Shown piece after piece: positions 14,685 through 30,915 of a DNA stretch of 30,915 nucleotides. A program made the translations under genes and the position numbers. Source of the DNA: Deltaproteobacteria bacterium (GTDB lineage Bacteria; Desulfobacterota; DSM-4660; Desulfatiglandales; HGW-15); contig JAHECH010000001.1 of NCBI GenBank assembly GCA_024641835.1, positions 1 through 30,915 on the forward strand, written 5' to 3'. Within the stretch, counting starts at the first letter, position 1. Every line of letters begins with the position of its first letter. The notes under the pieces are model-generated. The model did no database searches. It saw nothing but the letters and a program-made list of their open reading frames with translations, and was not told the origin of the DNA.

Positions 14685-14849
14685 TGTCCACCGGAAGTTG
14701 TTACGCCTTGTAATCAGCTATGACCAATGGCAGGCTCTACCATTTCCAATTCCTTCAATGTCTTGGGCCAGTGTTCCCGAATTCTCTCCAGGGGAAGGGA
14801 TGCTAAATTGCTGAGAGCAGCACCTCCATCAAGATTTATAGACCCTTTA

Positions 14850-15040
14850 CTAACCGATTCACGAGCCCAGCAGAAACGGCTATTCCTCAGCAAGCTTGTG
14901 AAGAGCATCACAGTCCATCCTGACAAGCTCACCGTAGAATACCACCCACCCATTCTCGCCAAAAAAAAGCCCCACCGGCAAAAGGCGAGACTTTTTCCGT
15001 AATTGACATGGCGTCCCCAAAGGTACTCCCCATTCACTAG
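14850..15040 (+). pseudogene. C-terminal remnant of a large serine recombinase
   Basis: QKRLFLSKLVKSITVHPDKLTVEY; one extra A in the A8 run at 14961-14968 would give KKKAPPAKGETFSVIDMASPK, resembling LSR tails that read into a tRNA-derived att site. Confidence 0.55.
15009..15020 (-). other. Putative att core: 3' fragment of a tRNA-Glu-like gene
   Basis: + strand TGGCGTCCCCAA = minus strand TTGGGGACGCCA; bacterial tRNA-Glu genes end GGGGACGCCA; no tRNA body follows. Confidence 0.45.
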
Positions 15041-15228
15041 TGTTGTTATGTTCGCCTAAGAAGTCATGGAAATAACTTGGAATTCTATCCAACCAAGAGG
15101 CACAAGACTCCGATCATCGTGCGGATGAAATGCGCTGACTATGAAAAGTGACGGAGGGTTCTATTCTATCTTGAATCGAGCTGGGTTCTCATGTGTGATG
15201 TTTGCTTCGTCTCAAGGGCCTCAGAAGA

Positions 15229-15897
15229 CTAGAAAATGCAAAAACTACCAAGTTGGCGGTTTGCCAATTGCGGTTCCATCAGACAGATGTAGGGATCTGG
15301 ATACTGATATCTTGCATACTGGCTCTTGTCTATTGTGAATGAACCTGAAGCTAATTTTGACAGTTCCTTGTTTTTTCTAAGGTAGGGAAACGCAAACAGC
15401 ACCCTTTTGGTCGGGAAGAGGGACATCGCTGTTCTCACAGCAGGGGCGAGATCCGTATCTCCAGTTACTAACACCGCCGTATCACACTCATTCCTGAGAA
15501 ACACTTCTAGTAATTTTACCGCAATGGCCACATCTGTCTCCTTCTCTTCGTGTTTGAAGAAGATTTTGCCGCACTTTGGTTCCGGGCATTTTACTTGTCT
15601 CGGCTTAAACCGGCTCAACTCAACTATGACCCCAGTGTCCTCAAGGCATTTGATAAAACGCCGGTGCCGGGCAGTCACGTCCGGGTCAACGGCTTCTATA
15701 TGCGTGGCCAATGCCGAAAAGTAGTAGACATTAGCCAATCGCGTTTTGTCGCCAACTGCTTTCGCGACAAGGTGCAAGTAAGATGAACACAATCTCTTGA
15801 TATCCAGCCACTTTGTCGAGAGGCGCAAAATTTTTTCTGCTGATCGCACCGAGTGGTATAGATTGAACCCATCGACTAGGAAGGTGACGAGATTCAT
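15229..15897 (-). CDS. NYN-domain (PIN-like) ribonuclease, with probable 1-bp deletion near the C-terminus
   Basis: FLVDGFNLYH, EEKETDV, LVTGDTDLAPA acidic motifs; start ATG 15897; alternate frame ends LSDGTAIGKPPTW* at 15245. Confidence 0.88.
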   Translation of the reverse strand: MNLVTFLVDGFNLYHSVRSAEKILRLSTKWLDIKRLCSSYLHLVAKAVGDKTRLANVYYFSALATHIEAVDPDVTARHRRFIKCLEDTGVIVELSRFKPRQVKCPEPKCGKIFFKHEEKETDVAIAVKLLEVFLRNECDTAVLVTGDTDLAPAVRTAMSLFPTKRVLFAFPYLRKNKELSKLASGSFTIDKSQYARYQYPDPYICLMEPQLANRQLGSFCIF

Positions 15898-15939
15898 GGT
15901 GGAAGGCGGAATCCCTTCATGCAGAGTAAGGAAAGAGAC

Positions 15940-15970
15940 AAAAAAACCCGTTGGATCGCAACCCAACGGG
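15940..15970 (-). terminator. Intrinsic terminator upstream of the NYN gene
   Basis: Minus strand CCCGTTGG-(8 nt)-CCAACGGG followed by T7. Confidence 0.75.
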
Positions 15971-16006
15971 GGCCAGGGAGCCTATAAGGCCCCACTGGGG
16001 TAGACG
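15940..16006 (-). ncRNA. Candidate ~65-nt two-hairpin RNA/leader between the NYN promoter and terminator
   Basis: Hairpin CCAGTGGGGCC-TTATA-GGCTCCCTGG (15973-15998; 10 bp, one bulge, one G-U) followed by the terminator hairpin. Confidence 0.5.
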
Positions 16007-16011
16007 TAAGA

Positions 16012-16040
16012 ACTATATGCTCCCCATCCACATGTGTCAA
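16012..16040 (-). promoter_or_regulatory. Sigma70-type promoter driving the leader/NYN gene
   Basis: Minus strand TTGACA-N17-TATAGT. Confidence 0.8.
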
Positions 16041-16053
16041 GTTTTTTGATTTG

Positions 16054-16071
16054 TCTCGAATCGATTCGAGA
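16054..16071. promoter_or_regulatory. 18-bp perfect palindrome, possible operator
   Basis: TCTCGAATCGATTCGAGA, 13 bp upstream of the NYN -35 box. Confidence 0.4.
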
Positions 16072-16534
16072 TTTCCTCAAGATTCCTTGAGTGTGTGCCT
16101 TTGGCTCCTGGATCGATCTGCCGCTGACATGCCTCATAACGCCCCAACAATCTCCGATCCGCACCCATCTCATGCTCCGCTCCGAGCGCAAGTCCCGCCA
16201 CCCCATAGGGCGCAGGCGAAGTGCGGCTCACAATAGGGCAGGAAGGGCTGCCTTGCGGGCACGCAGAAATTAGAAATGTCCAAATACAGGAGGGGCGCAA
16301 TTCCCCGATGCCACCCGCACTGGGGAGAGTGTCCATCATGCACCTGTAAGGAGCGGGAGGATGATATAGAGTAGATGAACCCTGACGCCCATGGTGGTTT
16401 AGAAGATAGAAGGATTTGACGACTGTGAGTAAGTAAAACTGGGGTTTTCTAAACCGAATTCTGTGTAATCCTCGTCTCCGGCTGGGGGTCAAAATGCCCT
16501 TCGGGTATCCCCGCCTGCGGCTCTGATCTCCGCC

Positions 16535-16912
16535 CTACCGTTCTCCTTTGAACTGCTTTACGTTCAAAGCCTTCCACTGCAGGCCGGGATGATTTTGTAT
16601 CTTTTTCATCATCTCTTCATCATCCGTAATCAAGGAAGGGTCTATGTCTCCATGGTCCAGGATGTGGTCAAGAAACTCGCGCTCTCTTTGTGTGAATGGT
16701 AACACGACGGAGATGGCCTGCCGGCACTCTTCAACGACACGGGAAGCCCATCTTTCAGGTTCACGAACATAACCCGGCTCATCAATGCGCAATACAGGAG
16801 TCAACTCATTTGCCAGCTCAGCAGCACCATACCGGATGTCATCTACCGACACAGTACGCCAATCCTTTCGGTTCATCGCACCGTAAACGATCCTTTCTCG
16901 TGAGAGCTTCAA
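16535..16912 (-). pseudogene. abiEii: AbiEii nucleotidyltransferase toxin remnant with a large in-frame internal deletion
   Basis: TTG start overlapping the abiEi stop (TTGA) with GGAGG RBS; MKLSRERI joined directly to C-terminal VYGAMNRKDWRTVS..HPGLQWKALNV; no KGGT/S.D.D catalytic motifs; 125 aa. Confidence 0.75.
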
Positions 16913-17715
16913 CCCACTTCCTCCCATCTTCTTTCCAGTATTTCAGGTGGCACCACGAGATTCCATCTTTTTAAGAAACGGCCAGCTGTTCGGCCCTTAT
17001 GGACCATGTAGTGAGGTTTCACCGGTATAAATGAACCAAGACGATCAAGGTGACCCTCATCAGGCATCAGGGTATCCTGATGTTGCTCCAGAAAAAAACC
17101 CACTTTCGCGGCAGTTGTCGCATTGCCCAGGAGATGGGTGTATTCAACCACATTGTCAAGGTCAAAGAACTCGATCAACTCAAGCGACCTCCATATCTCT
17201 TCCCAGGTTCCTCCCATGGAAGGACGATCCAGCACGTCCACAAAGGTACGATCCAAGCTGGTCACTCGGACGTCCAGTCCCTGCCTATCAACGGACGTCA
17301 CGCCGAAGGACTCCTGTCCTTTTTCTCTCAGCTTCCTGGGGTGGGCTACCCCACGGTATCTTTGGCCTCTTAAATTCAGTGGACGGCTTTTTGATCGTGT
17401 GAGATACGCAAACTCCTCGCGCACTGAGTACGCCTTGCCGTGCAGCTCAAGGGCGGTGTGGTAGGCAAGGACTGCGTCAGGGGCCATTCTCGAAGTAAGC
17501 AGGTATGGATCAACTGGGCATTTTTCAGGGGTGAGTCCAGGCGGCACTGTGACATAAAGCCCACGCCGGACCCGCAGAAGATGCCCGCTCTTCGTATGAT
17601 GGTTCAGGATGGACTCGCGCGTTTTGACATTGGTGGAGCCTTTATCTGAGAGAAACTCCACTAAGTCCTGATAGGTGAAGACCGGGTGTGTTGCGAAGAA
17701 ATCTTGTAGTTTCAT
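16909..17715 (-). CDS. abiEi: AbiEi-type antitoxin/transcriptional regulator (type IV toxin-antitoxin)
   Basis: N-terminal wHTH (VFTYQDL..LLRVRRGLY), AVLAYHTALELHG, TSLDRTFVDVLDRP; start ATG 17715. Confidence 0.85.
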   Translation of the reverse strand: MKLQDFFATHPVFTYQDLVEFLSDKGSTNVKTRESILNHHTKSGHLLRVRRGLYVTVPPGLTPEKCPVDPYLLTSRMAPDAVLAYHTALELHGKAYSVREEFAYLTRSKSRPLNLRGQRYRGVAHPRKLREKGQESFGVTSVDRQGLDVRVTSLDRTFVDVLDRPSMGGTWEEIWRSLELIEFFDLDNVVEYTHLLGNATTAAKVGFFLEQHQDTLMPDEGHLDRLGSFIPVKPHYMVHKGRTAGRFLKRWNLVVPPEILERRWEEVG

Positions 17716-17746
17716 TTCCAACGCCCCGCTTGATAACAGGGATCTA

Positions 17747-17769
17747 CACCCTTGAATTATTTAAAGGTA
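17747..17769. promoter_or_regulatory. Imperfect palindrome IR1, putative AbiEi operator
   Basis: CACCCTTGAATTATTTAAAGGTA; core 17/21 identical to IR2. Confidence 0.55.
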
Positions 17770-17776
17770 TTGATGA

Positions 17777-17805
17777 TTAGTATCAAGTCTAAAAACCGAT
17801 TGCAA
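17777..17805 (-). promoter_or_regulatory. Putative abiEi promoter
   Basis: Minus strand TTGCAA-N17-TACTAA with TGn extension, between IR1 and IR2. Confidence 0.45.
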
Positions 17806-17830
17806 GCAAATATTTGATGCCACAAAGCAA

Positions 17831-17853
17831 TACCCCTAAATTTATTAAAGGTA
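17831..17853. promoter_or_regulatory. Imperfect palindrome IR2, putative AbiEi operator
   Basis: TACCCCTAAATTTATTAAAGGTA, 84 bp from IR1. Confidence 0.55.
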
Positions 17854-17988
17854 ATGCATACAAAAATCAAGTCGAGGAGTCCCGGCCTGTTAAGGCTCTG
17901 GCAAGAGATGATCATAGGGCGGCTCAACCTTTCTTGAACAGCAAGGAAAAGTCCTCCAAGTAGCCTTTAAAGCGAAGGAAAATGCTTT

Positions 17989-18162
17989 GGTTGACAATCA
18001 CTAACAACCAGAGTAAATTGCCTCCAAACTTCGGCAATTCTTACAGATAGTTACCCCAGACAAATAAAACTCACTGGTGGATATGGCCTATTTCATTGAA
18101 AAGAAGGCTGCACCAAAGAGAGACGGATAGAGAACCCCATTTCTCAATTTGAGGGATGGGGT
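17989..18162 (+). repeat. Copy 1 of a 174-bp promoter + structured leader + terminator element
   Basis: Ungapped alignment to 22645-22818, 148/174 identical by hand count. Confidence 0.95.
17991..18019 (+). promoter_or_regulatory. Sigma70-type promoter, copy 1
   Basis: TTGACA-N17-TAAATT. Confidence 0.75.
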
Positions 18163-18172
18163 TTTGTTGTTG
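18133..18172 (+). terminator. Leader terminator hairpin, copy 1
   Basis: AACCCCATTTCTCA-ATT-TGAGGGATGGGGTT followed by TTGTTGTTG. Confidence 0.65.
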
Positions 18173-18245
18173 ATGGTTGCTTCACGCTTTTTCGAGATTC
18201 CTGCGGCAGCGATCGACGAAATGCAAGACCGAGGCGGGAGGATAA

Positions 18246-18728
18246 GTGGCTGATATCTTTACAGACCAGGAAATCGGTGTTCTGATAGGCGAGAAGAAAC
18301 CCCTTCCTGCCGACTATCGAACGAGGATACTGGTCAGGCCCAAGAGGGGTCACAAAGAGCGGGAAATGGATCTCAAAGGAGAGAGCGGAAGCGAGTTTCG
18401 CCTCGTCTTGCGACAGAGCATCTCAAACCCTCTCGATTTCTCTATCATCCTGGCGTACAGGCCACCAAACTCAAACATCTTGTTCAGGCTCCGAAGATAT
18501 AATGGGAAAAGCCATGAGCACACGAATATCATAGAGGGTTCGTCATTCTACGATTACCATATTCATCAGGCTACGGAGCGGTACCAGCTGATGGGTGCAA
18601 GGGAGGATTCCTATGCTGAGAAAACGGACCGTTTCTCTGACTTTCGGCGGGCAGTTTCGTGCCTGATTGAGGACTGCGGGTTCGAGATTCCTCCCGGAAC
18701 ACAGAAGTCGCTCTTTGAGGAGATTTGA
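18246..18728 (+). CDS. His-rich conserved hypothetical protein (DUF6978-like)
   Basis: GTG start with GGAGG RBS; LRRYNGKSHEHTN..YHIHQATERY; directly upstream of DUF1828 gene. Confidence 0.7.
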   Translation: MADIFTDQEIGVLIGEKKPLPADYRTRILVRPKRGHKEREMDLKGESGSEFRLVLRQSISNPLDFSIILAYRPPNSNILFRLRRYNGKSHEHTNIIEGSSFYDYHIHQATERYQLMGAREDSYAEKTDRFSDFRRAVSCLIEDCGFEIPPGTQKSLFEEI

Positions 18729-18731
18729 GCT

Positions 18732-19505
18732 ATGAATCCACAGAAGATTGAACAGGATTTCCGAGAAAAGGTTTGCGACAAACTCAGAATCTCAAGTGAA
18801 GGCATGGACCGTTTTCGCGTCTTCACTCCTTTCATGTTTGAGGATGGCGACCATCTCTCGATCGTCCTGAAGAGGGATAATGGGGCGTGGATACTCTCGG
18901 ACGAAGGGCACACATACATGCACCTGACCTACGACCTGGATGAGAAAGACCTTCAACGAGGGACCAGGCAGAAGATCATTTCGAACGCCCTATCAGTGTT
19001 CAAGGTCCAGGACAGGGAAGGAGAACTGAGAGTCACCATAGAAGAAGACCAATACGGCAATGCCCTGTACAGTTTTGTCCAAGGGCTGCTCAAGATCACG
19101 GACATCACCTATCTCTCTCGCGAAAGGGTCCGATCCACCTTCATGGACGATTTCAGAGCATTCATGGAGGAATCCGTTCCTGAACATCGCAGGGTGTTTG
19201 ACTGGAACGATCCTCTCCATGATCCGGATGGAAAGTATACAGCCGATTGTAGGGTCAACGGGATGCCAAAGCCAGTCTTGGTTTATGCACTCCCGAGCGA
19301 CGACAAGACCCGGGATGCCACAATCACTCTGCTCCAGTTTGAAAAATGGGGCCTTGCCTTCCGGTCCCTTGCGATCTTTGAAGACCAGGAGATGATTAAT
19401 CGGAAGGTGCTGGCCCGCTATAGCGACGTCTGCGAGAAGCAGTTCTCAAGCCTGGGAGCCAACAGGGAAAGAATCAAACGGTACTTGGAAGAGTCTATGG
19501 AATAA
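18732..19505 (+). CDS. DUF1828-domain protein
   Basis: [28 protein letters not shown]-terminal pattern; C-terminal domain [17 protein letters not shown]. Confidence 0.78.
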
Positions 19506-19842
19506 ATGATTCTGATTGGAGCCTCATCCAACTCCACTTTCAAGTTCAGCCGGGTTACTCACGCTTTCCGCGCACACGGATCGGTGCTGAGGCGTCAAGG
19601 CGAGTTTCATGTCCCACTACCAGTGGAAAGAAGTAGGCCCCGCAAGTGGCTGAGACCTACTAGCTCCATTTGGGCGATGACGCAGTGGGCGAATCACCCG
19701 AGATTATGTCCAACCATAACCCGGTGGCGAAACACCAGCAGGTCTAGCGGGAAGTTGTGCCGGACAGCTTCTGCGTGATTTTGGGTGAATGGGATTCATT
19801 TCAATTCCCACATTTCTGATTGACCTGGAAAGGATAATGATC

Positions 19843-22323
19843 ATGGAAAAAAGGGGGGTGTTCAAGACAATCTTTGGCGGTACCCCGCGGGCTACAGATC
19901 CCGAAGGTCTTTTCCGCGACTTACGCGGCCGCTCCCCGGACATCAAACATCTGTGGTCGCATCAGGCTGACATTCTCAGGGACTACCATCAAAACTTCCA
20001 AACCGCAAAAGATGTGGCTATAGAACTTCCAACCGGCGCGGGCAAGACGCTGGTTGGACTAATCATTGCCGAGTTCCGTCGTCAGCTTTTTGACGAACGG
20101 GTGGCCTATCTATGCCCGACTCGCCAGCTCGCACGCCAAGTCGGGGCGCAAGCCTTGAAGTATGGCATCAGAGCACACGTTTTTGTTGGCAAACAAAAAG
20201 ACTATCCCCCCCTTGAGTTCAGCGAGTTCCAATCGAGCAAAGCAATAGGTGTTACTACTTACAGTGGAGTTTTCAACTCGCGCCCGCGCATTCGTGATGC
20301 CCAAACACTTATATTGGATGATGCCCACGCCAGCGAGAATTACATCTCAAATATGTGGTCAGTTGAAATTAACAGAAAGGCGACCGGAGAGCTCTATAGG
20401 GCCGTCGCGGACTTGTTTCAGGAGGGACTCCCTTCGGCCTTCTATGCCGATATTTGTGGTGATCGATCCCGAACGGATCTTATTGAGTTGATACCTGGCA
20501 AGTATGTACGGGCATTCCAAAAGGGTCTGCGAGATTTGCTGGACACCAAGCTAGAAAAGCAGAGCCCATCTTGGTATTCTTGGGAACTGATTAAAGAGCA
20601 CGTTGCTGCTTGCGGTATCTTCATATCGTGGGATTCGATTCTGCTACGTCCCTTCATCCCACCAGCACTCACACACACTGCCTTCACACAGGCTAATCAG
20701 CGAATTTACATGTCCGCCACCCTCGGAGCTGGTGGGGAGCTTGAACGAATCACCGGGATTTCATCCATCAAGAGATTACCAGTCCCGGCAGGTTGGGATA
20801 AACGTGGCAGTGGCCGGCGGCTGTTCCTAGCGCCGCAAGTGGCCATGGCTGATGCGGAGGCGATGGAAGTATTGCTGAAGGCTGTTCAGGCTACTCAAAG
20901 AACCTTGGTACTCACACCTAGTCAGCCCGAAGCTGCTGCTTTTGGTGCTGCCCTTGCTGAAAAGGGCGTAACCGTCCTTGGAGCGGCGGACATAGAGGAC
21001 TCAATCGAGCCGTTTTCGAAGAGCCAGGGTTCAGCCTTGGTTCTTTGTCGATACGATGGGTTAGATCTTCCCGATGACGCCTGCCGCCTGCTCATCATGG
21101 GCGGGCTGCCGAGCGGAACAAACCTCCAGGAGAAATTCTTGTGGTCCAGAATTGCTGCCTTTTCACTCCTTCGCGATCGTGTACTCACTAGGTTCACACA
21201 AGGAGTTGGCCGTTGTACGCGATCAGACAACGATTTTGCAGTGATATTCATATGGGGCCGTCCACTTGTGGACTTTGTCCTAAAACAGGAAAATCGACGC
21301 ATTCTTAATCCTGAACTCCAGTCCGAACTTGAATTTGGAATCGAAAACTGCAAGGACACAAAGGGAGAACAGTTCGAGGGCCTGTGGAACGCATTTCTAG
21401 CTCAAAGCGAAGAATGGGAAGATGCTGAGAATGCAATAATAAACCTGAGGGAACAAAAATCGAGGAACGCTGATCCCATTTCAGAACGACTTTTCTCCGT
21501 GGTAGCCGACGAGGTATCTTATCTTTACTCGATGTGGAAAGGAGACTATGAGTCAGCTTTGGAACTCGCTCGCAGGATTGCAGACGGGTTAGGCGGTGAC
21601 GAGACAAAGGGCTATCGAGGCTGGTGGTATTATCTTGCGGCTGATGCAGCTATGGCCCTTTATGAGGCAACCGGAGAGGATGATCTTTCCGAAACGGCTA
21701 AGGACGCTTTGAAGCGCGCATCCAAGTGCTGTTCGGCGATCAGTTGGTTCGCCCGCCTAGCTCGTTCTGCCCGAGCTGGAGTGGATGTCAGTGCACCCAA
21801 CGAAGTTGCGGCCATTGCCGTGGAAAACATCCGTGACAAACTCACTGAGTGGGGAACTGTAGGTAAACGGTTCGAGCGAGAGGTTTCCCAGGCGATTAAG
21901 GATCTTCAAGCCACAGAGCACAAAACATTTCATAGAGGGTTGAAAGTTCTTGGTGAGATGCTTGGATTCCGATCTGAATTGCCCCGCGGCGATGGCGGGC
22001 CAGATTGCATCTGGTCAATCGGAAATGATCTATATATTGTTCACGAGGCCAAGTCGGATCACACGCCTGGTGACACCATCGGAGTCAATGCTGTAAGGCA
22101 GGCGCAAAGCCATGAAGATTGGGTCCGGGGTAATCGCAAATGCAGCGATGCAACTCAGGTGTTGCCTTTGATCGAAACACCGCGCAAAGTAGTGTCCCAA
22201 GATGCATTACCGTATGCTAAATCCCTTTGTCATGTATCGCCAGTACAACTGAAGGGCATGTGCGAGCGGGTTTCAGAAGTTCTTCGCCGAATCAGGGCTA
22301 ATTCTCCCAATCTAAGCGATTAG
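19843..22323 (+). CDS. SF2 DEAD/DEAH helicase with C-terminal PD-(D/E)xK nuclease (Hna-like); TAG at 22321 probably premature
   Basis: ELPTGAGKT, YLCPTRQLARQV, LDDAHA, YMSATLG, QGVGRCTR, PDCIW..HEAKS; AGGA RBS supports ATG 19843; frame stays open 35 codons past TAG to TGA 22431. Confidence 0.85.
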   Translation: MEKRGVFKTIFGGTPRATDPEGLFRDLRGRSPDIKHLWSHQADILRDYHQNFQTAKDVAIELPTGAGKTLVGLIIAEFRRQLFDERVAYLCPTRQLARQVGAQALKYGIRAHVFVGKQKDYPPLEFSEFQSSKAIGVTTYSGVFNSRPRIRDAQTLILDDAHASENYISNMWSVEINRKATGELYRAVADLFQEGLPSAFYADICGDRSRTDLIELIPGKYVRAFQKGLRDLLDTKLEKQSPSWYSWELIKEHVAACGIFISWDSILLRPFIPPALTHTAFTQANQRIYMSATLGAGGELERITGISSIKRLPVPAGWDKRGSGRRLFLAPQVAMADAEAMEVLLKAVQATQRTLVLTPSQPEAAAFGAALAEKGVTVLGAADIEDSIEPFSKSQGSALVLCRYDGLDLPDDACRLLIMGGLPSGTNLQEKFLWSRIAAFSLLRDRVLTRFTQGVGRCTRSDNDFAVIFIWGRPLVDFVLKQENRRILNPELQSELEFGIENCKDTKGEQFEGLWNAFLAQSEEWEDAENAIINLREQKSRNADPISERLFSVVADEVSYLYSMWKGDYESALELARRIADGLGGDETKGYRGWWYYLAADAAMALYEATGEDDLSETAKDALKRASKCCSAISWFARLARSARAGVDVSAPNEVAAIAVENIRDKLTEWGTVGKRFEREVSQAIKDLQATEHKTFHRGLKVLGEMLGFRSELPRGDGGPDCIWSIGNDLYIVHEAKSDHTPGDTIGVNAVRQAQSHEDWVRGNRKCSDATQVLPLIETPRKVVSQDALPYAKSLCHVSPVQLKGMCERVSEVLRRIRANSPNLSD

Positions 22324-22427
22324 AAGGTTCTTGAGCACCTGAACCAGCAAGTCGCGGTGGCTAAGCTGACGCCGCCGGATATAGTTGAAATACTTAGCGC
22401 TAACCCAGTTGCGAAGATGCGGACCAG

Positions 22428-22631
22428 ATGAAAAGCGACAAAATTCAGAAGACAATTCAGTTCATTAACGACCGGCGGCTGATTGAGGATTACCTGCCCA
22501 TCCAGGCCATCAGCAAAGAGGCATCGTGGGAGATGTATGTCGGCAAGGGACAAATTTCCATCCTGCATCATCAATTCATTTTTGCCAGCCTCAAGATCTG
22601 TCGTCTGGAGAGCAAAACACCATTGGGCTGA
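22428..22631 (+). pseudogene. N-terminal remnant of a DUF1156-domain adenine DNA methylase
   Basis: DRRLIEDYLPIQAISKEAS...KGQISILH resembles the DUF1156 N-terminus (RLIE..LP..EIS..REK..GHISTLH.WWARRPL); similarity stops before WWARRPL. Confidence 0.65.
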
Positions 22632-22644
22632 GGCAAAACGCCAA

Positions 22645-22818
22645 GGTTGACAATCACTAACAACCAGAGTAGATTACCCCTAAATTTCGTCTTTTGTTAC
22701 AGATAGTTACCATTTGCAACCAAAACTCACTGGTGGACATGGCCTGTTTGCATGAAAAAAAGGCTGCACCAAAGAGAGGCGGATACAGAACCCCATTTCT
22801 CAGGTTGAGGGATGGGGT
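22645..22818 (+). repeat. Copy 2 of the 174-bp promoter + structured leader + terminator element
   Basis: Offset 4656 bp from copy 1, no indels. Confidence 0.95.
22647..22675 (+). promoter_or_regulatory. Sigma70-type promoter, copy 2 (CBASS operon)
   Basis: TTGACA-N17-TAGATT. Confidence 0.75.
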
Positions 22819-22830
22819 CTAGTTTTTTCT
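22790..22830 (+). terminator. Leader terminator hairpin, copy 2
   Basis: ACCCCATTTCTCA-GGT-TGAGGGATGGGGT followed by CTAGTTTTTTCT. Confidence 0.65.
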
Positions 22831-22940
22831 TGGAGCTTTGTGGCCTAATCTATCAAAGGGATGCGGTATATGGGGAGTGGACGGGTAATTGAAGGTGGAC
22901 GGATTCGAGGCCCATTCTCCAATCCAGAATACCATGGCTG

Positions 22941-23525
22941 ATGGCTCAAACGTCAAAACACATCACAAATAACCCCAGGGCATGGGTTCTACTGAGCGGA
23001 GGGATCGACTCAACCGCATGCTTGGCCTTCTACTTAGAACAAGGATTCTCAGTGGCCGGAATATTCGTAGATTATGGCCAAATCGCTATGCCAAGGGAAG
23101 TTCGGGCAGCGGAGGCCGTCGCTAAACATTATCGCATCCCTCTAACTAAACTTAAGTGGATGGGGGTGCAGCAAAAAACAAGTGGGCTGATTCTCGGGCG
23201 AAATGCATTTCTCCTTATGGGAGCCCTGATAGAACTGCCAGAAGACCAGGGAATTCTATCCATTGGTATCCATGCTGGAACGCGCTATCAGGACTGCAAA
23301 GGGCTTTTTGTTCGAAAAATGCAGTCGCTCTTTGATACATATACAAAGGGAAAGGTTCAGATAGGGGCACCTTTCCTGAAATGGACGAAGGGGGACATTT
23401 GGCAATATTCTAAATCGAGAGGAGTGCCTCTTGATTTGACTTACAGTTGTGAACGGGGGGAAAACCAACCTTGTGGCATTTGTCTCTCGTGCCAGGACCT
23501 GGAGCGACTGTATGCTAGCACGTAG
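22941..23525 (+). CDS. cap9: QueC-like protein of type IV CBASS
   Basis: LLSGGIDST PP-loop, GRN, TYSC..PCGICLSC zinc site; context with TGT-like gene and CD-NTase. Confidence 0.88.
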   Translation: MAQTSKHITNNPRAWVLLSGGIDSTACLAFYLEQGFSVAGIFVDYGQIAMPREVRAAEAVAKHYRIPLTKLKWMGVQQKTSGLILGRNAFLLMGALIELPEDQGILSIGIHAGTRYQDCKGLFVRKMQSLFDTYTKGKVQIGAPFLKWTKGDIWQYSKSRGVPLDLTYSCERGENQPCGICLSCQDLERLYAST

Positions 23526-24549
23526 ATCGGTCCTACAGCATCCGCAGGGTGCGACTATCGACATGCCCCGGCTAGTCCCATCTTTTTCGAGTAAAGGCTT
23601 TCCGTTTGTTGAGAATAAGGAATTGAAACGCGAGATCTCAGAGGTCAATGACGCATTAGAACTGACCGGGCCTATCATAAACGACTCAATTCTTATTAGC
23701 GCTTACGATATCTCCCACAAGTACCTTGTGAGGCCTGAACGCTTTTATGGGAACAAAGAACTGGTCATCATTGACAGTGGTGGGTATGAGCTCTCTGTTG
23801 ACTTCGACTCAACTGAACCAAAGCAAGACCCTTACACGCCGGATAAGAACTATCGTTTGGAGTCCTATAAGCGAGTCCTGTCGGCTTTGCCAAAGAACCG
23901 TCCTATCGCCATCACCAATTTCGATCACGAATCCATTGGAAAAGACATTGAGATACAAATCCAGTCAGCGCAAGCCCTGTTCAACCGATATCCGGAATAC
24001 CTCCATGACTTTATCATCAGGCCGTCGGTTCACAAGAGATTTGTTAATTTGGACGAAATCATCTTCAGTATCGAGAAGATGCGAAGATTCCATATCATCG
24101 GGGTCACTGAGAAAGAGTTGGGAGGGACCATTCTGGACAAGCTTGTCGACATCGCCAATCTGCGGACTGCGATGAACAAGAAGGGTATAGACGGTCCGAT
24201 CCATGTATGGGGTGGTCTTGATCCTGTGACATCCCCCCTCTATTTCTTTGCAGGAGCCGAGATCTTTGACGGCGTCTCCTGGCTGCGATATGGATATTTC
24301 AGCGATGCCGCAATTCCGAGAGATTCCTATACGGCTTTGGACCTTGGCATTCAAACCTCGTGGAAAAAGGCTCAGACCATAAGGCTTGCGAAGAACCTCG
24401 GTTATTTGGATACCCTGACTCTCCGCATGAGACAATTCGTGGATAAGGGGAAGCCTGACTTTTCCATTTTCAGTACACACCACAAGGCGATTGAAATCGC
24501 GTATAATGCTTTGTGCACGCGCGTCCCGGAATTGAAAGGAGGCACCTGA
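23512..24549 (+). CDS. cap10: tRNA-guanine transglycosylase-like protein of type IV CBASS
   Basis: IDSGGYE (TGT DSGG motif), HVWGG, IFDGVSW; ATG 23512 with GGAG RBS overlapping the queC-like 3' end. Confidence 0.82.
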   Translation: MLARRSVLQHPQGATIDMPRLVPSFSSKGFPFVENKELKREISEVNDALELTGPIINDSILISAYDISHKYLVRPERFYGNKELVIIDSGGYELSVDFDSTEPKQDPYTPDKNYRLESYKRVLSALPKNRPIAITNFDHESIGKDIEIQIQSAQALFNRYPEYLHDFIIRPSVHKRFVNLDEIIFSIEKMRRFHIIGVTEKELGGTILDKLVDIANLRTAMNKKGIDGPIHVWGGLDPVTSPLYFFAGAEIFDGVSWLRYGYFSDAAIPRDSYTALDLGIQTSWKKAQTIRLAKNLGYLDTLTLRMRQFVDKGKPDFSIFSTHHKAIEIAYNALCTRVPELKGGT

Positions 24550-25472
24550 TGGGCGGAAGTGGAGGGGGAAGGAGCTATTTCCCTCGAACTGACCCGGTTC
24601 TTCAAAGATTGGCCCTGGATTCTAAACAGGAAACAGACCGGCAAAGGTTGGATAGCGATGTGGCCAATCTTCTGAAAGTGGTGCTTGCATCTTGTGAGAG
24701 AGACTCAGCTGAAACCTCGGAGCGCCTTGACGAAATTGCAAGTGCCCTAGAAGACAAGGTTGAGATGGAAAAGTTCCTATTTGGTGGTTCTGTGGCAAAG
24801 CACACTTACGTCGACGGTCTTAGCGACGTTGATGCCCTGGTAATAATGACCAAAGAGGATTCGGCTGGTAAGTCTCCGAAGGAAGTCCTCGACTCTTTAT
24901 ATAAATCACTTCAGGACGAAATCACATATGACAAAGTCAAGTCAGTGGAAAAGGGGAGGATGGCCATTACAGTGGTTTATCGTGAGGGATCGGAGATTCA
25001 GTTGCTTCCTGCTATTCGCATTGGAAAGAATATTCTTATACCGCAGGCGAGGGCGAATGAGTGGAAAGAGACTAATCCAAAAGCGTTTCAACGAACACTT
25101 ACAACAGCGAATGAGAGACTCGATAGCACCTTGGTGCCTACAATCAAACTGATGAAGTCAATAAACGCAGGCTTCCCAGAGCAGAAGCAGTTGACCGGAT
25201 ATCACATTGAGTCTCTTTCTGTCGAGGCTGTAAAGGGATATCGAGGAGCCAAGACAGTAAAGGCTTTGCTCACTCATATCCTGGAGCAGTCTTCAAAAAG
25301 GGTGCTGAGCCCTATCCAAGATGTCACAGGACAGTTCAGAATAGTCGATTCTTATCTTGGAAAGGCATATAGTACAGAACGACGAATTGTCGCCGATGCG
25401 TTGGGCAGCGTTGTGAGGAAATTGAACGCGGCAAAGACAGTTGAGGAATGGAAGAGAATTCTGGAGCCGTAA
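24549..25472 (+). CDS. CD-NTase (cGAS/DncV-like oligonucleotide cyclase) of type IV CBASS
   Basis: GGSVAKHTYVDGLSDVD (GS..DxD), EIQLLPA, TIKLMK, GYHIE; N-terminus MGGSGGG; TGATG overlap. Confidence 0.88.
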   Translation: MGGSGGGRSYFPRTDPVLQRLALDSKQETDRQRLDSDVANLLKVVLASCERDSAETSERLDEIASALEDKVEMEKFLFGGSVAKHTYVDGLSDVDALVIMTKEDSAGKSPKEVLDSLYKSLQDEITYDKVKSVEKGRMAITVVYREGSEIQLLPAIRIGKNILIPQARANEWKETNPKAFQRTLTTANERLDSTLVPTIKLMKSINAGFPEQKQLTGYHIESLSVEAVKGYRGAKTVKALLTHILEQSSKRVLSPIQDVTGQFRIVDSYLGKAYSTERRIVADALGSVVRKLNAAKTVEEWKRILEP

Positions 25473-26068
25473 GGGTAGTGGATATAACTGCCAAGGAGTT
25501 GAGTCGCCAGTTTAGGCTCTTGACCCAGATGCTTTCGATGCATGCAGTGTTAAGGGACCGCTACACGCGTCGTGCCTTGTTTATCGACATTTTGTTCTTG
25601 GCCTGTTCCGTGGTTTTCTGCGCCACAACATTTGCCCGTGATGATTTGTTCATCCGGATAGGCTTCGCTCCGAGTGATGTACAGTATCTTCTTGGTGTTG
25701 CTTCAGTTGTTGCTTTTTTTTCTTCCTTGGTGGCTCTGAGAGCCGATTGGAAAGGTATGGCTGCCTGCCACAAGGAAGCTATCCAGAAACTAGGCAGAGT
25801 CCTCTGGGAATTCAGAGGGTGCAGGCAGGAAGACGGGTCATGGCCGTTAGATCGGATGGTGGATCTTGACCGGGCATATTGGGAGGCAATGAACAATATT
25901 GTCGGCATTCCCGATAGGCTTTTTGTTGGCCTTAAAGCACGGCACTTGAGAAAGGTGGAGATCAGCGGGATGTCCGACTCTGCCCCGGGGTGCCCACTTT
26001 TTCTGCTTCGGCTGATTCTGCTCAAGCGATCTATCTCGAAGGCGAGCAGGAAACCGGAAAAGATATGA
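25448..26068 (+). CDS. Two-transmembrane SLATT-like CBASS effector
   Basis: Two hydrophobic helices (ALFIDILFLACSVVFCATTF; LLGVASVVAFFSSLVAL) flanked by H..LRDRY and AACHKEA; exact start uncertain. Confidence 0.75.
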   Translation: MEENSGAVRVVDITAKELSRQFRLLTQMLSMHAVLRDRYTRRALFIDILFLACSVVFCATTFARDDLFIRIGFAPSDVQYLLGVASVVAFFSSLVALRADWKGMAACHKEAIQKLGRVLWEFRGCRQEDGSWPLDRMVDLDRAYWEAMNNIVGIPDRLFVGLKARHLRKVEISGMSDSAPGCPLFLLRLILLKRSISKASRKPEKI

Positions 26069-26739
26069 AGATGCGCCAATATATACCACCGAGCCGCAAA
26101 GAAATGAACAAGATTCACCGTATCGTTGAGGCATATCTAATAGCTAAAGAGTATGTTCTCAAAGAAGGCTATGGGGAAGAAATTGACTGGCAGGATAGCC
26201 TTATGCTGTGGCATATAACAGAGTCAGATTTCCTAAGAGAGTCTGCTTGGGTCGTCTTGTCATCAGGCATGGCTGAAGTAGTCATCCGAAGAAAGTTTCC
26301 CTCTTTATCAGGGGCTTTTCACTATTGGAGAAGCGCAACGGAAATCATCGACGATTCGGAGCAATGTCGCAAAAGAGCTCTCGATGTTTTCCGAAACAGT
26401 AGGAAGATAGAGGCCATCATTTCAATAGCACAGCGAATATGCAGGCAAGGCTTCAAGATAGTCAAGAGACAGATACAGGAAGATGGTGTGAAATTCATTC
26501 AGTCTCTGCCTTTCATGGGACCAGCAACATCGTACCATCTAGCAAAGAACATAGGTCTTGACGTGGTAAAGCCTGACCGTCATTTGTTGCGGGTTGCCGC
26601 CGCTGCTGGCTTCGCGACCCCAGAGCAACTGTGCAACGAAATCACTTCCGTTGTCGGTGATCGCGTTTCAGTTGTCGATCTTGTAATTTGGCGGTTTGCC
26701 ACTTTGAAGGCAAACTATCTTGAGATTTTTGCCCAGTGA
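26065..26739 (+). CDS. cap11: HhH/OGG-like N-glycosylase/DNA lyase of type IV CBASS
   Basis: QSLPFMGPATSYHLAKNIGLDVVKPDRH helix-hairpin-helix plus Asp; ATGA overlap at 26065. Confidence 0.8.
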   Translation: MKMRQYIPPSRKEMNKIHRIVEAYLIAKEYVLKEGYGEEIDWQDSLMLWHITESDFLRESAWVVLSSGMAEVVIRRKFPSLSGAFHYWRSATEIIDDSEQCRKRALDVFRNSRKIEAIISIAQRICRQGFKIVKRQIQEDGVKFIQSLPFMGPATSYHLAKNIGLDVVKPDRHLLRVAAAAGFATPEQLCNEITSVVGDRVSVVDLVIWRFATLKANYLEIFAQ

Positions 26740-26878
26740 TAACCTTGTCCTTTCCGCAATTCCCGAACAATTATGAGTATCCGGTCGAACGAGCACATAC
26801 AAGAGCGACCTAAGCTAGATTCGAATGAATTTTGGACAGGTGCCTCCTACCATGGTCACCCCATCCACCTCCCCGTCG

Positions 26879-26927
26879 AGTGTGTAACCGGGTCCCAAGA
26901 GTTATCTGAACGCATTCACGTTTGCAA
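26879..26927 (+). repeat. 49-bp direct repeat, copy 1
   Basis: AGTGTGTAACCGGGTCCCAAGAGTTATCTGAACGCATTCACGTTTGCAA; 45/49 identical to 30739-30787. Confidence 0.9.
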
Positions 26928-27216
26928 ATCATTATAGCCCTCCGTCACCGCTACCTGACTTCACCATTTCCATCCTCCTCCAAGATCTTCAACCCAAACT
27001 CCCAGCAAGTAAATCCGATCATAATCACTAGGAGCAAACGGAAGAGAAAGCCCGGCCAGCAAGGCCGGTAATACTTACTGGGATAAATCTAGGCTTTGGA
27101 ATTGCCATTTCGTTGTGATGGCAGGCAGTTATGACGATTTCGGTGTTATCAACCTATGAAATGCGAGTTTGGGGCAGAGCGCACAAAGAATGGGTAAGTA
27201 AAGCACGAAATCAGAA

Positions 27217-27603
27217 TTATCTTGGATTCCAATTCCCTTGAGAATCATAGAAAGGACATTGAGGCTGCCCGGCCGCATTCCACAATGCGTCAAAAGCAGG
27301 CTTCAAAATGGTTTCAGGAGGCCATGTGACATCTTCAACGAAGATTTCCGGGACTATAAGATCGTTCCTATCTATCAAATTGGTTTGAAATCCAGCTGCT
27401 CGGATGCGAGTAGGTAAATTGTATCCCTTTACTCCAAGGAGAGATAAAAGCACAAAAAAGGGAGGTTCAGCGTCAAGCCTGTTTTGAATAATGAAGAATC
27501 TCCCTAATGCCTTGACCAATTCCTTTTCAAAATCCGGGCTCGGGATTAATGGCGGATTTCTATCCAGATTAAAAAGCGTTGTAGTGACAGATTCGATGAC
27601 GCC
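27217..27603 (-). pseudogene. C-terminal remnant of an AlbA/Schlafen-associated protein
   Basis: Open frame GVIESV..LIPSPDFEKELVKAL..VLLSLLGVKGY..PEIFVED..LKPAFDALWNAAG..FYDSQGNW; N-terminal half missing. Confidence 0.55.
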
Positions 27604-30738: not shown

Positions 30739-30787
30739 AGTGTGTAACGGGGTCCCAACAGTCATCTGAACGCATTCACATTTGCAA
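30739..30787 (+). repeat. 49-bp direct repeat, copy 2
   Basis: AGTGTGTAACGGGGTCCCAACAGTCATCTGAACGCATTCACATTTGCAA. Confidence 0.9.
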
Positions 30788-30800
30788 GGCGTTATTAAGG

Positions 30801-30853: not shown

Positions 30854-30915
30854 ATGTCAAGACCGCTTCGCATAGAATATCCTGATGGATGGTACCATGT
30901 CATGAATCGCGGCCG
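30854..30915 (+). mobile_element. Start of a REP-associated/Y1 (HUH) tyrosine transposase, truncated by the window end
   Basis: MSRPLRIEYPDGWYHVMNRG, the typical RAYT N-terminus; not in the ORF track. Confidence 0.8.

Follow-up and report, generated by a model that had tools for sequence, protein, structure and literature searches.

A repeated promoter-leader-terminator unit as a candidate shared leader of unrelated anti-phage operons in a Desulfobacterales-like family

Two copies of a repeat precede two unrelated defence operons in a 30,915-nt stretch of deltaproteobacterial DNA (positions 1 to 30,915 of contig JAHECH010000001.1, NCBI GenBank assembly GCA_024641835.1), hereafter called the window. 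Judged from its sequence, the repeat is a self-contained unit of ~175 bp that comprises a promoter, a structured leader RNA of ~140 nt and an intrinsic terminator. The reading preferred here, with a probability of roughly 0.55, is that the repeat is a portable transcription unit, that many unrelated anti-phage operons of a single Desulfobacterales-like family have it as their common 5' leader, and that the expression of these operons is gated by read-through.

The unit in the window and its copies elsewhere

The two copies, at 17989-18162 and 22645-22818, were aligned without gaps and are identical at 148 of 174 positions (blastn E = 6e-52), and a repeat search extended the pair to 17974-18182 and 22630-22838 with 81% identity. 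The 26 mismatches fall in the region of the -10 box and the transcription start site, in a linker (18056-18065), in an apical loop (18090-18103) and in the terminator loop (18147-18148). The two copies agree exactly in TTGACA-N17, in the block TTACAGATAGTTACC and in both arms of each stem. The gapless alignment, the clustering of mismatches in loops and linkers and the invariant parts had all been described in a first-pass annotation made from the letters of this DNA, and they were reproduced. In a scan of 14700-27500 (12.8 kb), the units accounted for the two highest-scoring terminators and for two of the top three sigma-70 promoter matches. The features of the two copies and the operons behind them are as follows.

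17991..18019, plus strand: copy 1 promoter, TTGACA, 17-nt spacer, TAAATT (score 10/12)
18026..18169, plus strand: copy 1 predicted leader RNA of ~144 nt by folding, from a start site placed by the position of the -10 box to the U tract
18041..18055, plus strand: conserved 5' block TTACAGATAGTTACC, 90% conserved across 77 copies, a candidate operator or single-stranded RNA site
18070..18120, plus strand: copy 1 stem-loop P1, 3 + 5 + 6 bp with a GAUA bulge and a 15-nt loop (-14 kcal/mol)
18083..18130, plus strand: copy 1 upstream open reading frame (ORF), 15 codons and TAG, with its AUG within P1 and its stop 7 nt ahead of the hairpin
18118..18126, plus strand: copy 1 purine-rich linker GAGAGACGG, which can pair with the terminator 5' arm and overlaps the base of P1
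18131..18169, plus strand: copy 1 intrinsic terminator, 16-bp stem, 3-nt loop and U tract (-21.7 kcal/mol)
18246..22323, plus strand: operon behind copy 1, a 160-aa ORF, DUF1828/PDC-M24B, a 90-aa ORF and a PDC-S28 helicase
22647..22675, plus strand: copy 2 promoter, TTGACA, 17-nt spacer, TAGATT
22682..22829, plus strand: copy 2 predicted leader RNA, with P1 at 22726-22776
22739..22822, plus strand: copy 2 upstream ORF, in which TAG is changed to TAC and the frame continues through the hairpin
22790..22829, plus strand: copy 2 terminator, 13-bp stem and interrupted U tract (-20.2 kcal/mol)
22837..22873, plus strand: degenerate second motif after the copy 2 terminator
22941..26739, plus strand: type IV CBASS (cyclic oligonucleotide-based anti-phage signalling system) operon behind copy 2

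The repeat is not a private duplication, because a third copy is present in the same genome and 83 distinct copies were collected in all. Contig C432 carries the third copy, which shares 93% identity with copy 1 and is followed by an unannotated ORF of >434 aa. The collection was made with a 27-nt degenerate pattern, which itself fixed the 5' arm of P1 and the AUG of the upstream ORF in this subfamily of units. The pattern retrieved 84 metagenome contigs and 9 genome contigs, from which the 83 distinct copies remained after removal of duplicates, 76-77 of them full length; a covariance model turned up further second copies on contigs already collected. The carriers are Desulfobacterales, Desulfobacteraceae or deltaproteobacterial metagenome-assembled genomes, and the metagenomes are from sediment or wetland. 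Full copies were found in 6 of the 61 species-level genomes of the family, distributed over three genera, and the 148 genomes examined from elsewhere in the order had none. The phage, plasmid and viral collections INPHARED, PLSDB and IMG/VR contained no copy, and a phage or plasmid origin was rejected on this ground. At one locus (L132:644-961) ~150 nt of additional sequence, possibly a small mobile insertion, interrupts the unit between its 5' leader and P1.

Searched against Rfam 15, the whole window had no match that reached the gathering score, and the unit alone gave only noise at E > 3. The unit is an undescribed RNA family, and two statements of the first-pass annotation hold: that the element matches no known riboswitch class, and that it is portable, being represented by many more copies than the two in the window.

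An all-against-all comparison of the copies and their flanks placed the upstream limit of homology at the -35 box, or inside the unit in copies with a diverged spacer, and the downstream limit at +80 to +100, the end of the terminator stem. Thus, the conserved module extends exactly from promoter to terminator. Across 77 copies, conservation is 0.99 in the -35 box, 0.68 in the spacer, 0.81 in the -10 box, 0.90 in the 5' block, 0.96 in the strands of P1, 0.97 in the terminator 5' arm and 0.93 in its 3' arm; it is 0.63 in the loops and 0.40-0.53 in the flanks. This profile fits a transcription unit. As in sigma-70 promoters, the hexamers are 17 nt apart and better conserved than the spacer, and the stems of 16 and 13 bp, with predicted energies of -20 to -22 kcal/mol, have the form of intrinsic terminators, with U tracts that are partly interrupted.

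Several base pairs are strand-specific. The terminator includes two U-G pairs, and P1 includes one U-G and one G-U pair, all of which are mismatches on the other strand. The terminator 3' arm appears as GAGGGAUGGGG, GAGAGGUGGGG or GAGGAAUGGGG and the 5' arm stays CCCCAUUUCUC, with pairing retained in each variant through U-A or U-G. The G-U pairs, and the 3'-arm variants that all keep complementarity to a U-rich 5' arm, speak for a function as plus-strand RNA. In the alignment, 94% of cells are paired overall and P1 is paired in 93-98%; seven terminator pairs are changed on both sides, and formal covariation is weak. Within P1, conservation extends to the bulge, the internal loop and most apical-loop positions, and four loop positions vary freely. 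The 5' block lies in a predicted single-stranded region, and no covarying pairing partner for it was found in the alignment of copies. Its pairing with a motif located after some terminators was rejected, as no consistent covariation was seen by eye.

The linker, GAGRGRCGG in its general form, nearly duplicates the terminator 3' arm, and its first three bases also form the base of P1. In the minimum free energy structure of the nascent RNA by RNAfold, the linker pairs with the terminator 5' arm in most copies. The predicted energies are -14 kcal/mol for P1, -6 kcal/mol for this alternative hairpin (-6.1 in copy 1) and -20 to -22 kcal/mol for the terminator. Because of the difference between the last two, the RNA alone should terminate, and something must tip the balance.

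Genes behind the units

The longest open frame within 700 nt after the unit is co-oriented with it in 56 of 64 copies. The distance from the terminator to the start codon is 13-75 nt at many loci; for example, the first gene lies 34 nt behind the terminator for XamI, 35 nt for Mrr, 39 nt for HsdM and 55 nt for PLD-SNF2. There is no room for a promoter of their own in front of these close first genes, and thus they need transcription through the hairpin.

At least 17 kinds of defence cassette are located downstream of the units. The systems represented are type I, II and IV restriction, BREX (bacteriophage exclusion), SNF2/DISARM-like (defence island system associated with restriction-modification), DUF499, DarT, HEPN, RadC and type IV CBASS. 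The first gene is a type I methylase at four loci and a HEPN gene at seven. Other first genes encode the nucleases XamI, Mrr, REase-ARP and RE_endonuc, two types of the BREX protein BrxA, SNF2/DrmD-like and PLD-SNF2 helicases, DUF499, DUF6079, a DarT match, RadC, the PDC-S48 DEDDh exonuclease and ResIII helicases. About nine first genes have no family match. The downstream enrichment of defence genes expected in the first-pass annotation is therefore borne out.

Both operons in the window belong to this set. In the operon behind copy 1, PADLOC assigned the DUF1828 gene to PDC-M24B and the helicase to PDC-S28 (1e-122). The 160-aa ORF had been labelled DUF6978, a label that was not recovered here, as the protein has no Pfam match at E <= 0.01. 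The operon behind copy 2 had been recognized as type IV CBASS, and the complete system was found, with QueC (2e-71), TGT (1e-89), the cyclase (2e-91), 2TM (2e-38) and OGG (5e-86).

Proteins of 180-1394 aa without a Pfam or PADLOC match are encoded directly behind units at L063:737-4921, L085:41-1444, L122:253-1077, L064:372-920 and L002:453-1754, and they are candidates for undescribed defence genes.

To our knowledge, little has been established on the expression and co-ordination of entire defence islands. Known regulators, among them the BrxR/CapW-type repressors and the C proteins, each serve a single system and are encoded alongside it. Here, a single cis element is common to these varied cassettes and moves as their 5' end, which suggests that the defences may share one transcriptional gate of an undescribed kind. 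The description of the unit as a transcription-attenuating leader, unusual in being the common head of many defence systems, is partly supported. If such a gate exists, one signal would set the levels of restriction, BREX, abortive infection and CBASS together, and the sequence of the unit would be a cheap genomic marker for new defence genes. If the unit is no more than a strong promoter with a leaky terminator, toxic genes acquired by horizontal transfer would have in it a natural "expression adaptor".

The upstream ORF and the proposed gating of read-through

The AUG of the subfamily is homologous to an AUG in a wider family of units, and it opens a frame of 15 codons with the consensus MAYLNEKKAAPKRGG, which crosses the P1 loop and 3' strand. 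An ORF of this length with its stop 5-7 nt before the hairpin is present in 53 of 76 copies, and in 10 more the stop lies in the hairpin loop; the stop is lost in ~20% of copies. A conserved micro-protein was rejected, since codons 4, 5 and 14 vary freely and one-base insertions or deletions shift the frame in five copies. Because the peptide is not conserved and the frame is shifted in this way, any function of the ORF should reside in the act of translation. That the ORF is translated is inferred. The first-pass annotation did not include the upstream ORF within the stem, the alternative pairing between linker and terminator 5' arm, the wider hairpin family or the arrays of units.

The wider family was recognized with the hairpin pattern alone, which matched in 24 of the 61 family genomes and in none when a reversed control pattern was used. 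Its units, selected by this pattern only, have a TTGACA promoter and the same hairpin with a shorter and different body. An invariant AUG is located 17-24 nt ahead of the hairpin, and GAGGG lies 4-5 nt ahead of the AUG. Among 33 ORFs, 14 are AUG-X-stop, with ~10 different combinations of X and stop; the chance of a stop at exactly the third codon is ~5% by our own estimate. Seven further ORFs are 4-6 codons long, with 3-6 nt between their end and the hairpin, and in 21 of the 33 the stop lies 3-16 nt before the hairpin. The genome of the window has four more sites of this family (G000:C384:2679, C589:1596, C593:1854 and C790:1283; L222-L225), three of which carry AUG-GAG-UGA, AUG-GCA-UGA or AUG-AAG-UGA 13-14 nt before the hairpin. 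Seven wider-family loci gave no Rfam match at E <= 0.1. The downstream genes are mixed: they include Cas3, SNF2, a pair of MazG and a Schlafen-type helicase, and HNH, as well as transporters and sensors. Thus, the association with defence belongs to the subfamily of the window units and not to the hairpin. Sequestration of the Shine-Dalgarno sequence by an upstream strand appears in most folds of the wider family (17 of 22 sequences covered), and it is not claimed, as shuffled controls show it in 40-80% of cases.

The following mechanism is proposed. Transcription would start from the unit's own promoter, as its agreement with the consensus and its conservation indicate, and most transcripts would stop at the hairpin to give a small RNA. 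The defence genes would be expressed only from polymerases that read through, which is supported by the many start codons that lie too near the terminator for a separate promoter to fit between. Read-through would probably be set by rivalry for the invariant 5' arm CCCCAUUUCUC between the terminator 3' arm and its weaker mimic in the linker. The ribosome is the favoured gate: at the end of the 15-codon ORF, a ribosome with the usual footprint would extend over the linker into the first bases of the 5' arm, and without translation P1 would hide the start site and the terminator would form. Both the direction of control and the signal in this scheme are inferred. The AUG-X-stop ORFs of the wider family are counted in favour of ribosome gating. 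Three partial units, placed between a HEPN gene and the next gene, have no promoter or 5' half and retain the stretch from the AUG to the terminator, which speaks for the preferred reading as a whole.

A broader proposal would unite the two groups of units. In it, a lineage-wide family of attenuators would combine a mini-ORF, often AUG-X-stop, with one terminator hairpin; one branch would have become the common leader of restriction, BREX, DISARM-like, CBASS, DarT and HEPN systems, and output would follow the loading of ribosomes behind RNA polymerase. This proposal is tentative and rather doubtful at present. If it is true, the regulon would sense host translation or the coupling of transcription and translation, which is disturbed by phage takeover. 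The AUG-X-stop version would also be a compact case for the effect of a ribosome on a minimal ORF upon an adjacent terminator.

Several points weigh against gated read-through or against the ribosome as its gate. The subfamily has a weak Shine-Dalgarno-like GGUGG separated from the AUG by just 2-3 nt, conservation of the TAG stop does not exceed that of the adjoining positions, and in copy 2 this stop is absent. The alternative hairpin is predicted to be far weaker than the terminator, and its pairing is conserved trivially, through purine changes opposite U. In P1, whose 5' arm was fixed by the search pattern, no pair is changed on both sides across the aligned copies; covariation is absent from this long stem because its sequence is nearly invariant. 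Three small metatranscriptomes from the source sample show nothing at the locus. Four non-defence genes were found behind units (MFS, TPR, Lcl_C and rpoN, the last 1.2 kb away). A conserved motif after the terminator of a subset of units could be a second promoter. It reads TTTGACC-N4-TCTG(A/T)CAA, followed by nAnGAT exactly 21 nt after TTGACC, and is present at 22837-22873, after the third copy (L002, ~270-307) and at ~11 or more other loci; it is common to units ahead of different genes, and its spacing misfits sigma-70. Finally, read-through may be simply constitutive and leaky, with a low standing dose fit for methylase systems. Restriction-modification and BREX need standing expression, and therefore a purely inducible gate is unlikely for them. 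The first-pass annotation had proposed an attenuator that keeps defence genes off until induction; its portable, defence-associated promoter-leader-terminator outside the known Rfam families stands, and the strictly inducible gate is doubtful for these systems. None of the three outcomes that it listed as refuting was encountered.

An alternative that dispenses with gating is a free-standing, multi-copy gene for a trans-acting small RNA in defence islands, with the 5' block as target seed and read-through as an incidental event. It would account for a module that extends exactly from promoter to terminator, for the predicted strength of the terminator, for the 90% conservation of a 15-nt block predicted to be single-stranded and for a possible second promoter motif after some units. 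However, it leaves the 56/64 co-orientation and the start codons 13-45 nt behind the terminator unexplained, no target was identified, and the partial copies, which retain the 3' half, are without the putative seed. This alternative is considered unlikely.

A similar order of promoter, small RNA, terminator and defence gene, with the dose set by read-through, is seen in the type III toxin-antitoxin systems (ToxIN-like). A repeat search found no tandem repeat within the unit, and an antitoxin RNA of this type was rejected for that reason. As the same RNA precedes many unrelated proteins, a specific pairing of RNA and toxin is implausible.

Antitermination without a ribosome was also considered, in which P1 would bind a small molecule or an RNA-binding or NusG-like antiterminator. 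The conserved bulge and loop positions of P1 described above, and the overlap of the P1 base with the predicted antiterminator strand, would suit such a switch. Most family genomes have a second NusG-family gene, but its presence does not track that of the unit: PF02357 has two copies in most of the 61 genomes, with or without a unit, and the NusG-paralogue profile was dropped as uninformative. A leader of the same layout is that of the LoaP-dependent dfn cluster, which has a small RNA hairpin and a NusA-dependent intrinsic terminator in the 5' leader (PMC12691694). In both cases a conserved hairpin followed by an intrinsic terminator heads accessory clusters whose expression needs read-through; the units differ in having no linked LoaP-like gene and in preceding defence genes instead of polyketide clusters. 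Against a ligand or protein switch stand the lack of an Rfam match, the absence of any regulator gene linked to the units, and the narrow spread, as this body is restricted to three genera, the hairpin being combined with another body in other genera. Such a switch appears improbable.

The ribosome-gated reading is closest to the ribosome-mediated attenuators, such as the amino-acid leader peptides, pyrBI and the antibiotic-responsive leaders. These share with the unit a short ORF, an adjacent terminator, a competing strand that in the unit is predicted, and a stop close enough for the ribosome to mask the foot of the stem. The unit differs in having no runs of regulatory codons, no conserved peptide, a start site inside a hairpin and a weak Shine-Dalgarno sequence placed close to it. 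It also differs in that one leader is common to many unrelated mobile operons and in that the ORF of the wider family is often AUG-X-stop.

The JUMPstart/ops (operon polarity suppressor) elements of RfaH are likewise short leader elements common to unrelated, horizontally acquired operons. The linker GGCGGATAG is similar to the ops core, GGCGGTAG, a resemblance that serves as a lead only. The 12-nt ops consensus GGCGGTAGnnTG is not matched, since the linker GGCGGATAGAG has one extra base. RfaH is gammaproteobacterial, and ops acts as non-template DNA at a pause site, against Rho. In contrast to the units, ops works without an adjacent intrinsic terminator.

Arrays of units and neighbouring elements

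The two units in the window are co-oriented and 4656 bp apart, and two co-oriented units are also present on at least eight short contigs. In a relative (L193, G004:C48:1-10878), six co-oriented units of the wider family are located within 10.9 kb, spaced 1.2-2.8 kb apart. The genes between them are V4R/XylR_N with a histidine kinase, SnoaL with a nitroreductase, PfkB with HSP20, one gene without known identity and an alpha/beta hydrolase. This locus looks like a cassette array without attC-like sites. Mosaic arrangements are found among the defence cassettes as well: one upstream cassette, a DUF1828-helicase remnant, stands before different downstream cassettes on different contigs, and one downstream helicase recurs behind units whose promoter spacers differ.

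These arrays and the varied pairing of cassettes, together with integron integrases above the cut-off in four of five carrier genomes, could speak for a unit conserved mainly as a homology or recombination site for the shuffling of defence cassettes, as in an integron or a CALIN (cluster of attC sites lacking integron integrases), but this is very improbable, as the unit has no RYYYAAC/GTTRRRY core sites on either strand, no unit or hairpin is located within 1.5-19 kb around five integrase loci, the cassettes have their own promoter and up to 4-5 genes, and the G-U pairs favour RNA function. On the same grounds of core sites, promoter and distance from the integrases, an attC site was rejected. 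The homogeneous attC repeats of sedentary chromosomal integrons, such as the Vibrio cholerae repeats, are comparable as lineage-specific repeats of high similarity placed between the accessory or defence cassettes of co-oriented arrays; they differ from the unit, which lies at the 5' end with a promoter, away from intI, and has G-U pairs of the RNA type.

The integron-type integrases (TIGR02249, above the curated cut-off) are present in the genome of the window and its relatives and in 0 of 14 control genomes. Their loci are G000:C723:1000-1929 (L199/L206), G004:C62, G003:C70 and C110, and G037:C11 and C1. No conserved repeats were seen beside them.

Upstream of the units, the neighbours include AbiEii toxins at 5 loci, a divergent HU/IHF-like gene at 14 and, elsewhere, ordinary core genes. 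The HU/IHF-like gene (PF00216; L060:9878-10291 and 13 other loci) starts ~75-90 nt upstream of the -35 box. It was set aside, as it is one of eight paralogues in the genome of the window and is not located beside the units there. It is probably a hotspot neighbour, or else it may be a DNA-bending partner of the promoter.

In the window, a 57-nt direct repeat, 88% identical between 26879-26935 and 30739-30795, flanks AlbA_2/HATPase_c_4, DprA-like and 92-aa genes. AlbA_2/HATPase_c_4 proteins recur in 11 cassettes adjoining units elsewhere. A RAYT-type (REP-associated tyrosine) transposase gene starts at 30854, behind a small hairpin of its own. The unit was rejected as a REP (repetitive extragenic palindromic) element of this transposase, since the hairpin of the latter differs.

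Another leader was found in the window at 15947-16040 on the minus strand, upstream of an NYN-domain gene. It has TTGACA-N17-TATAGT, a short structured RNA and a 10-bp terminator with T7, and it provides the best promoter match and the third-best terminator match of the island. Its architecture is the same as that of the units, with an unrelated sequence.

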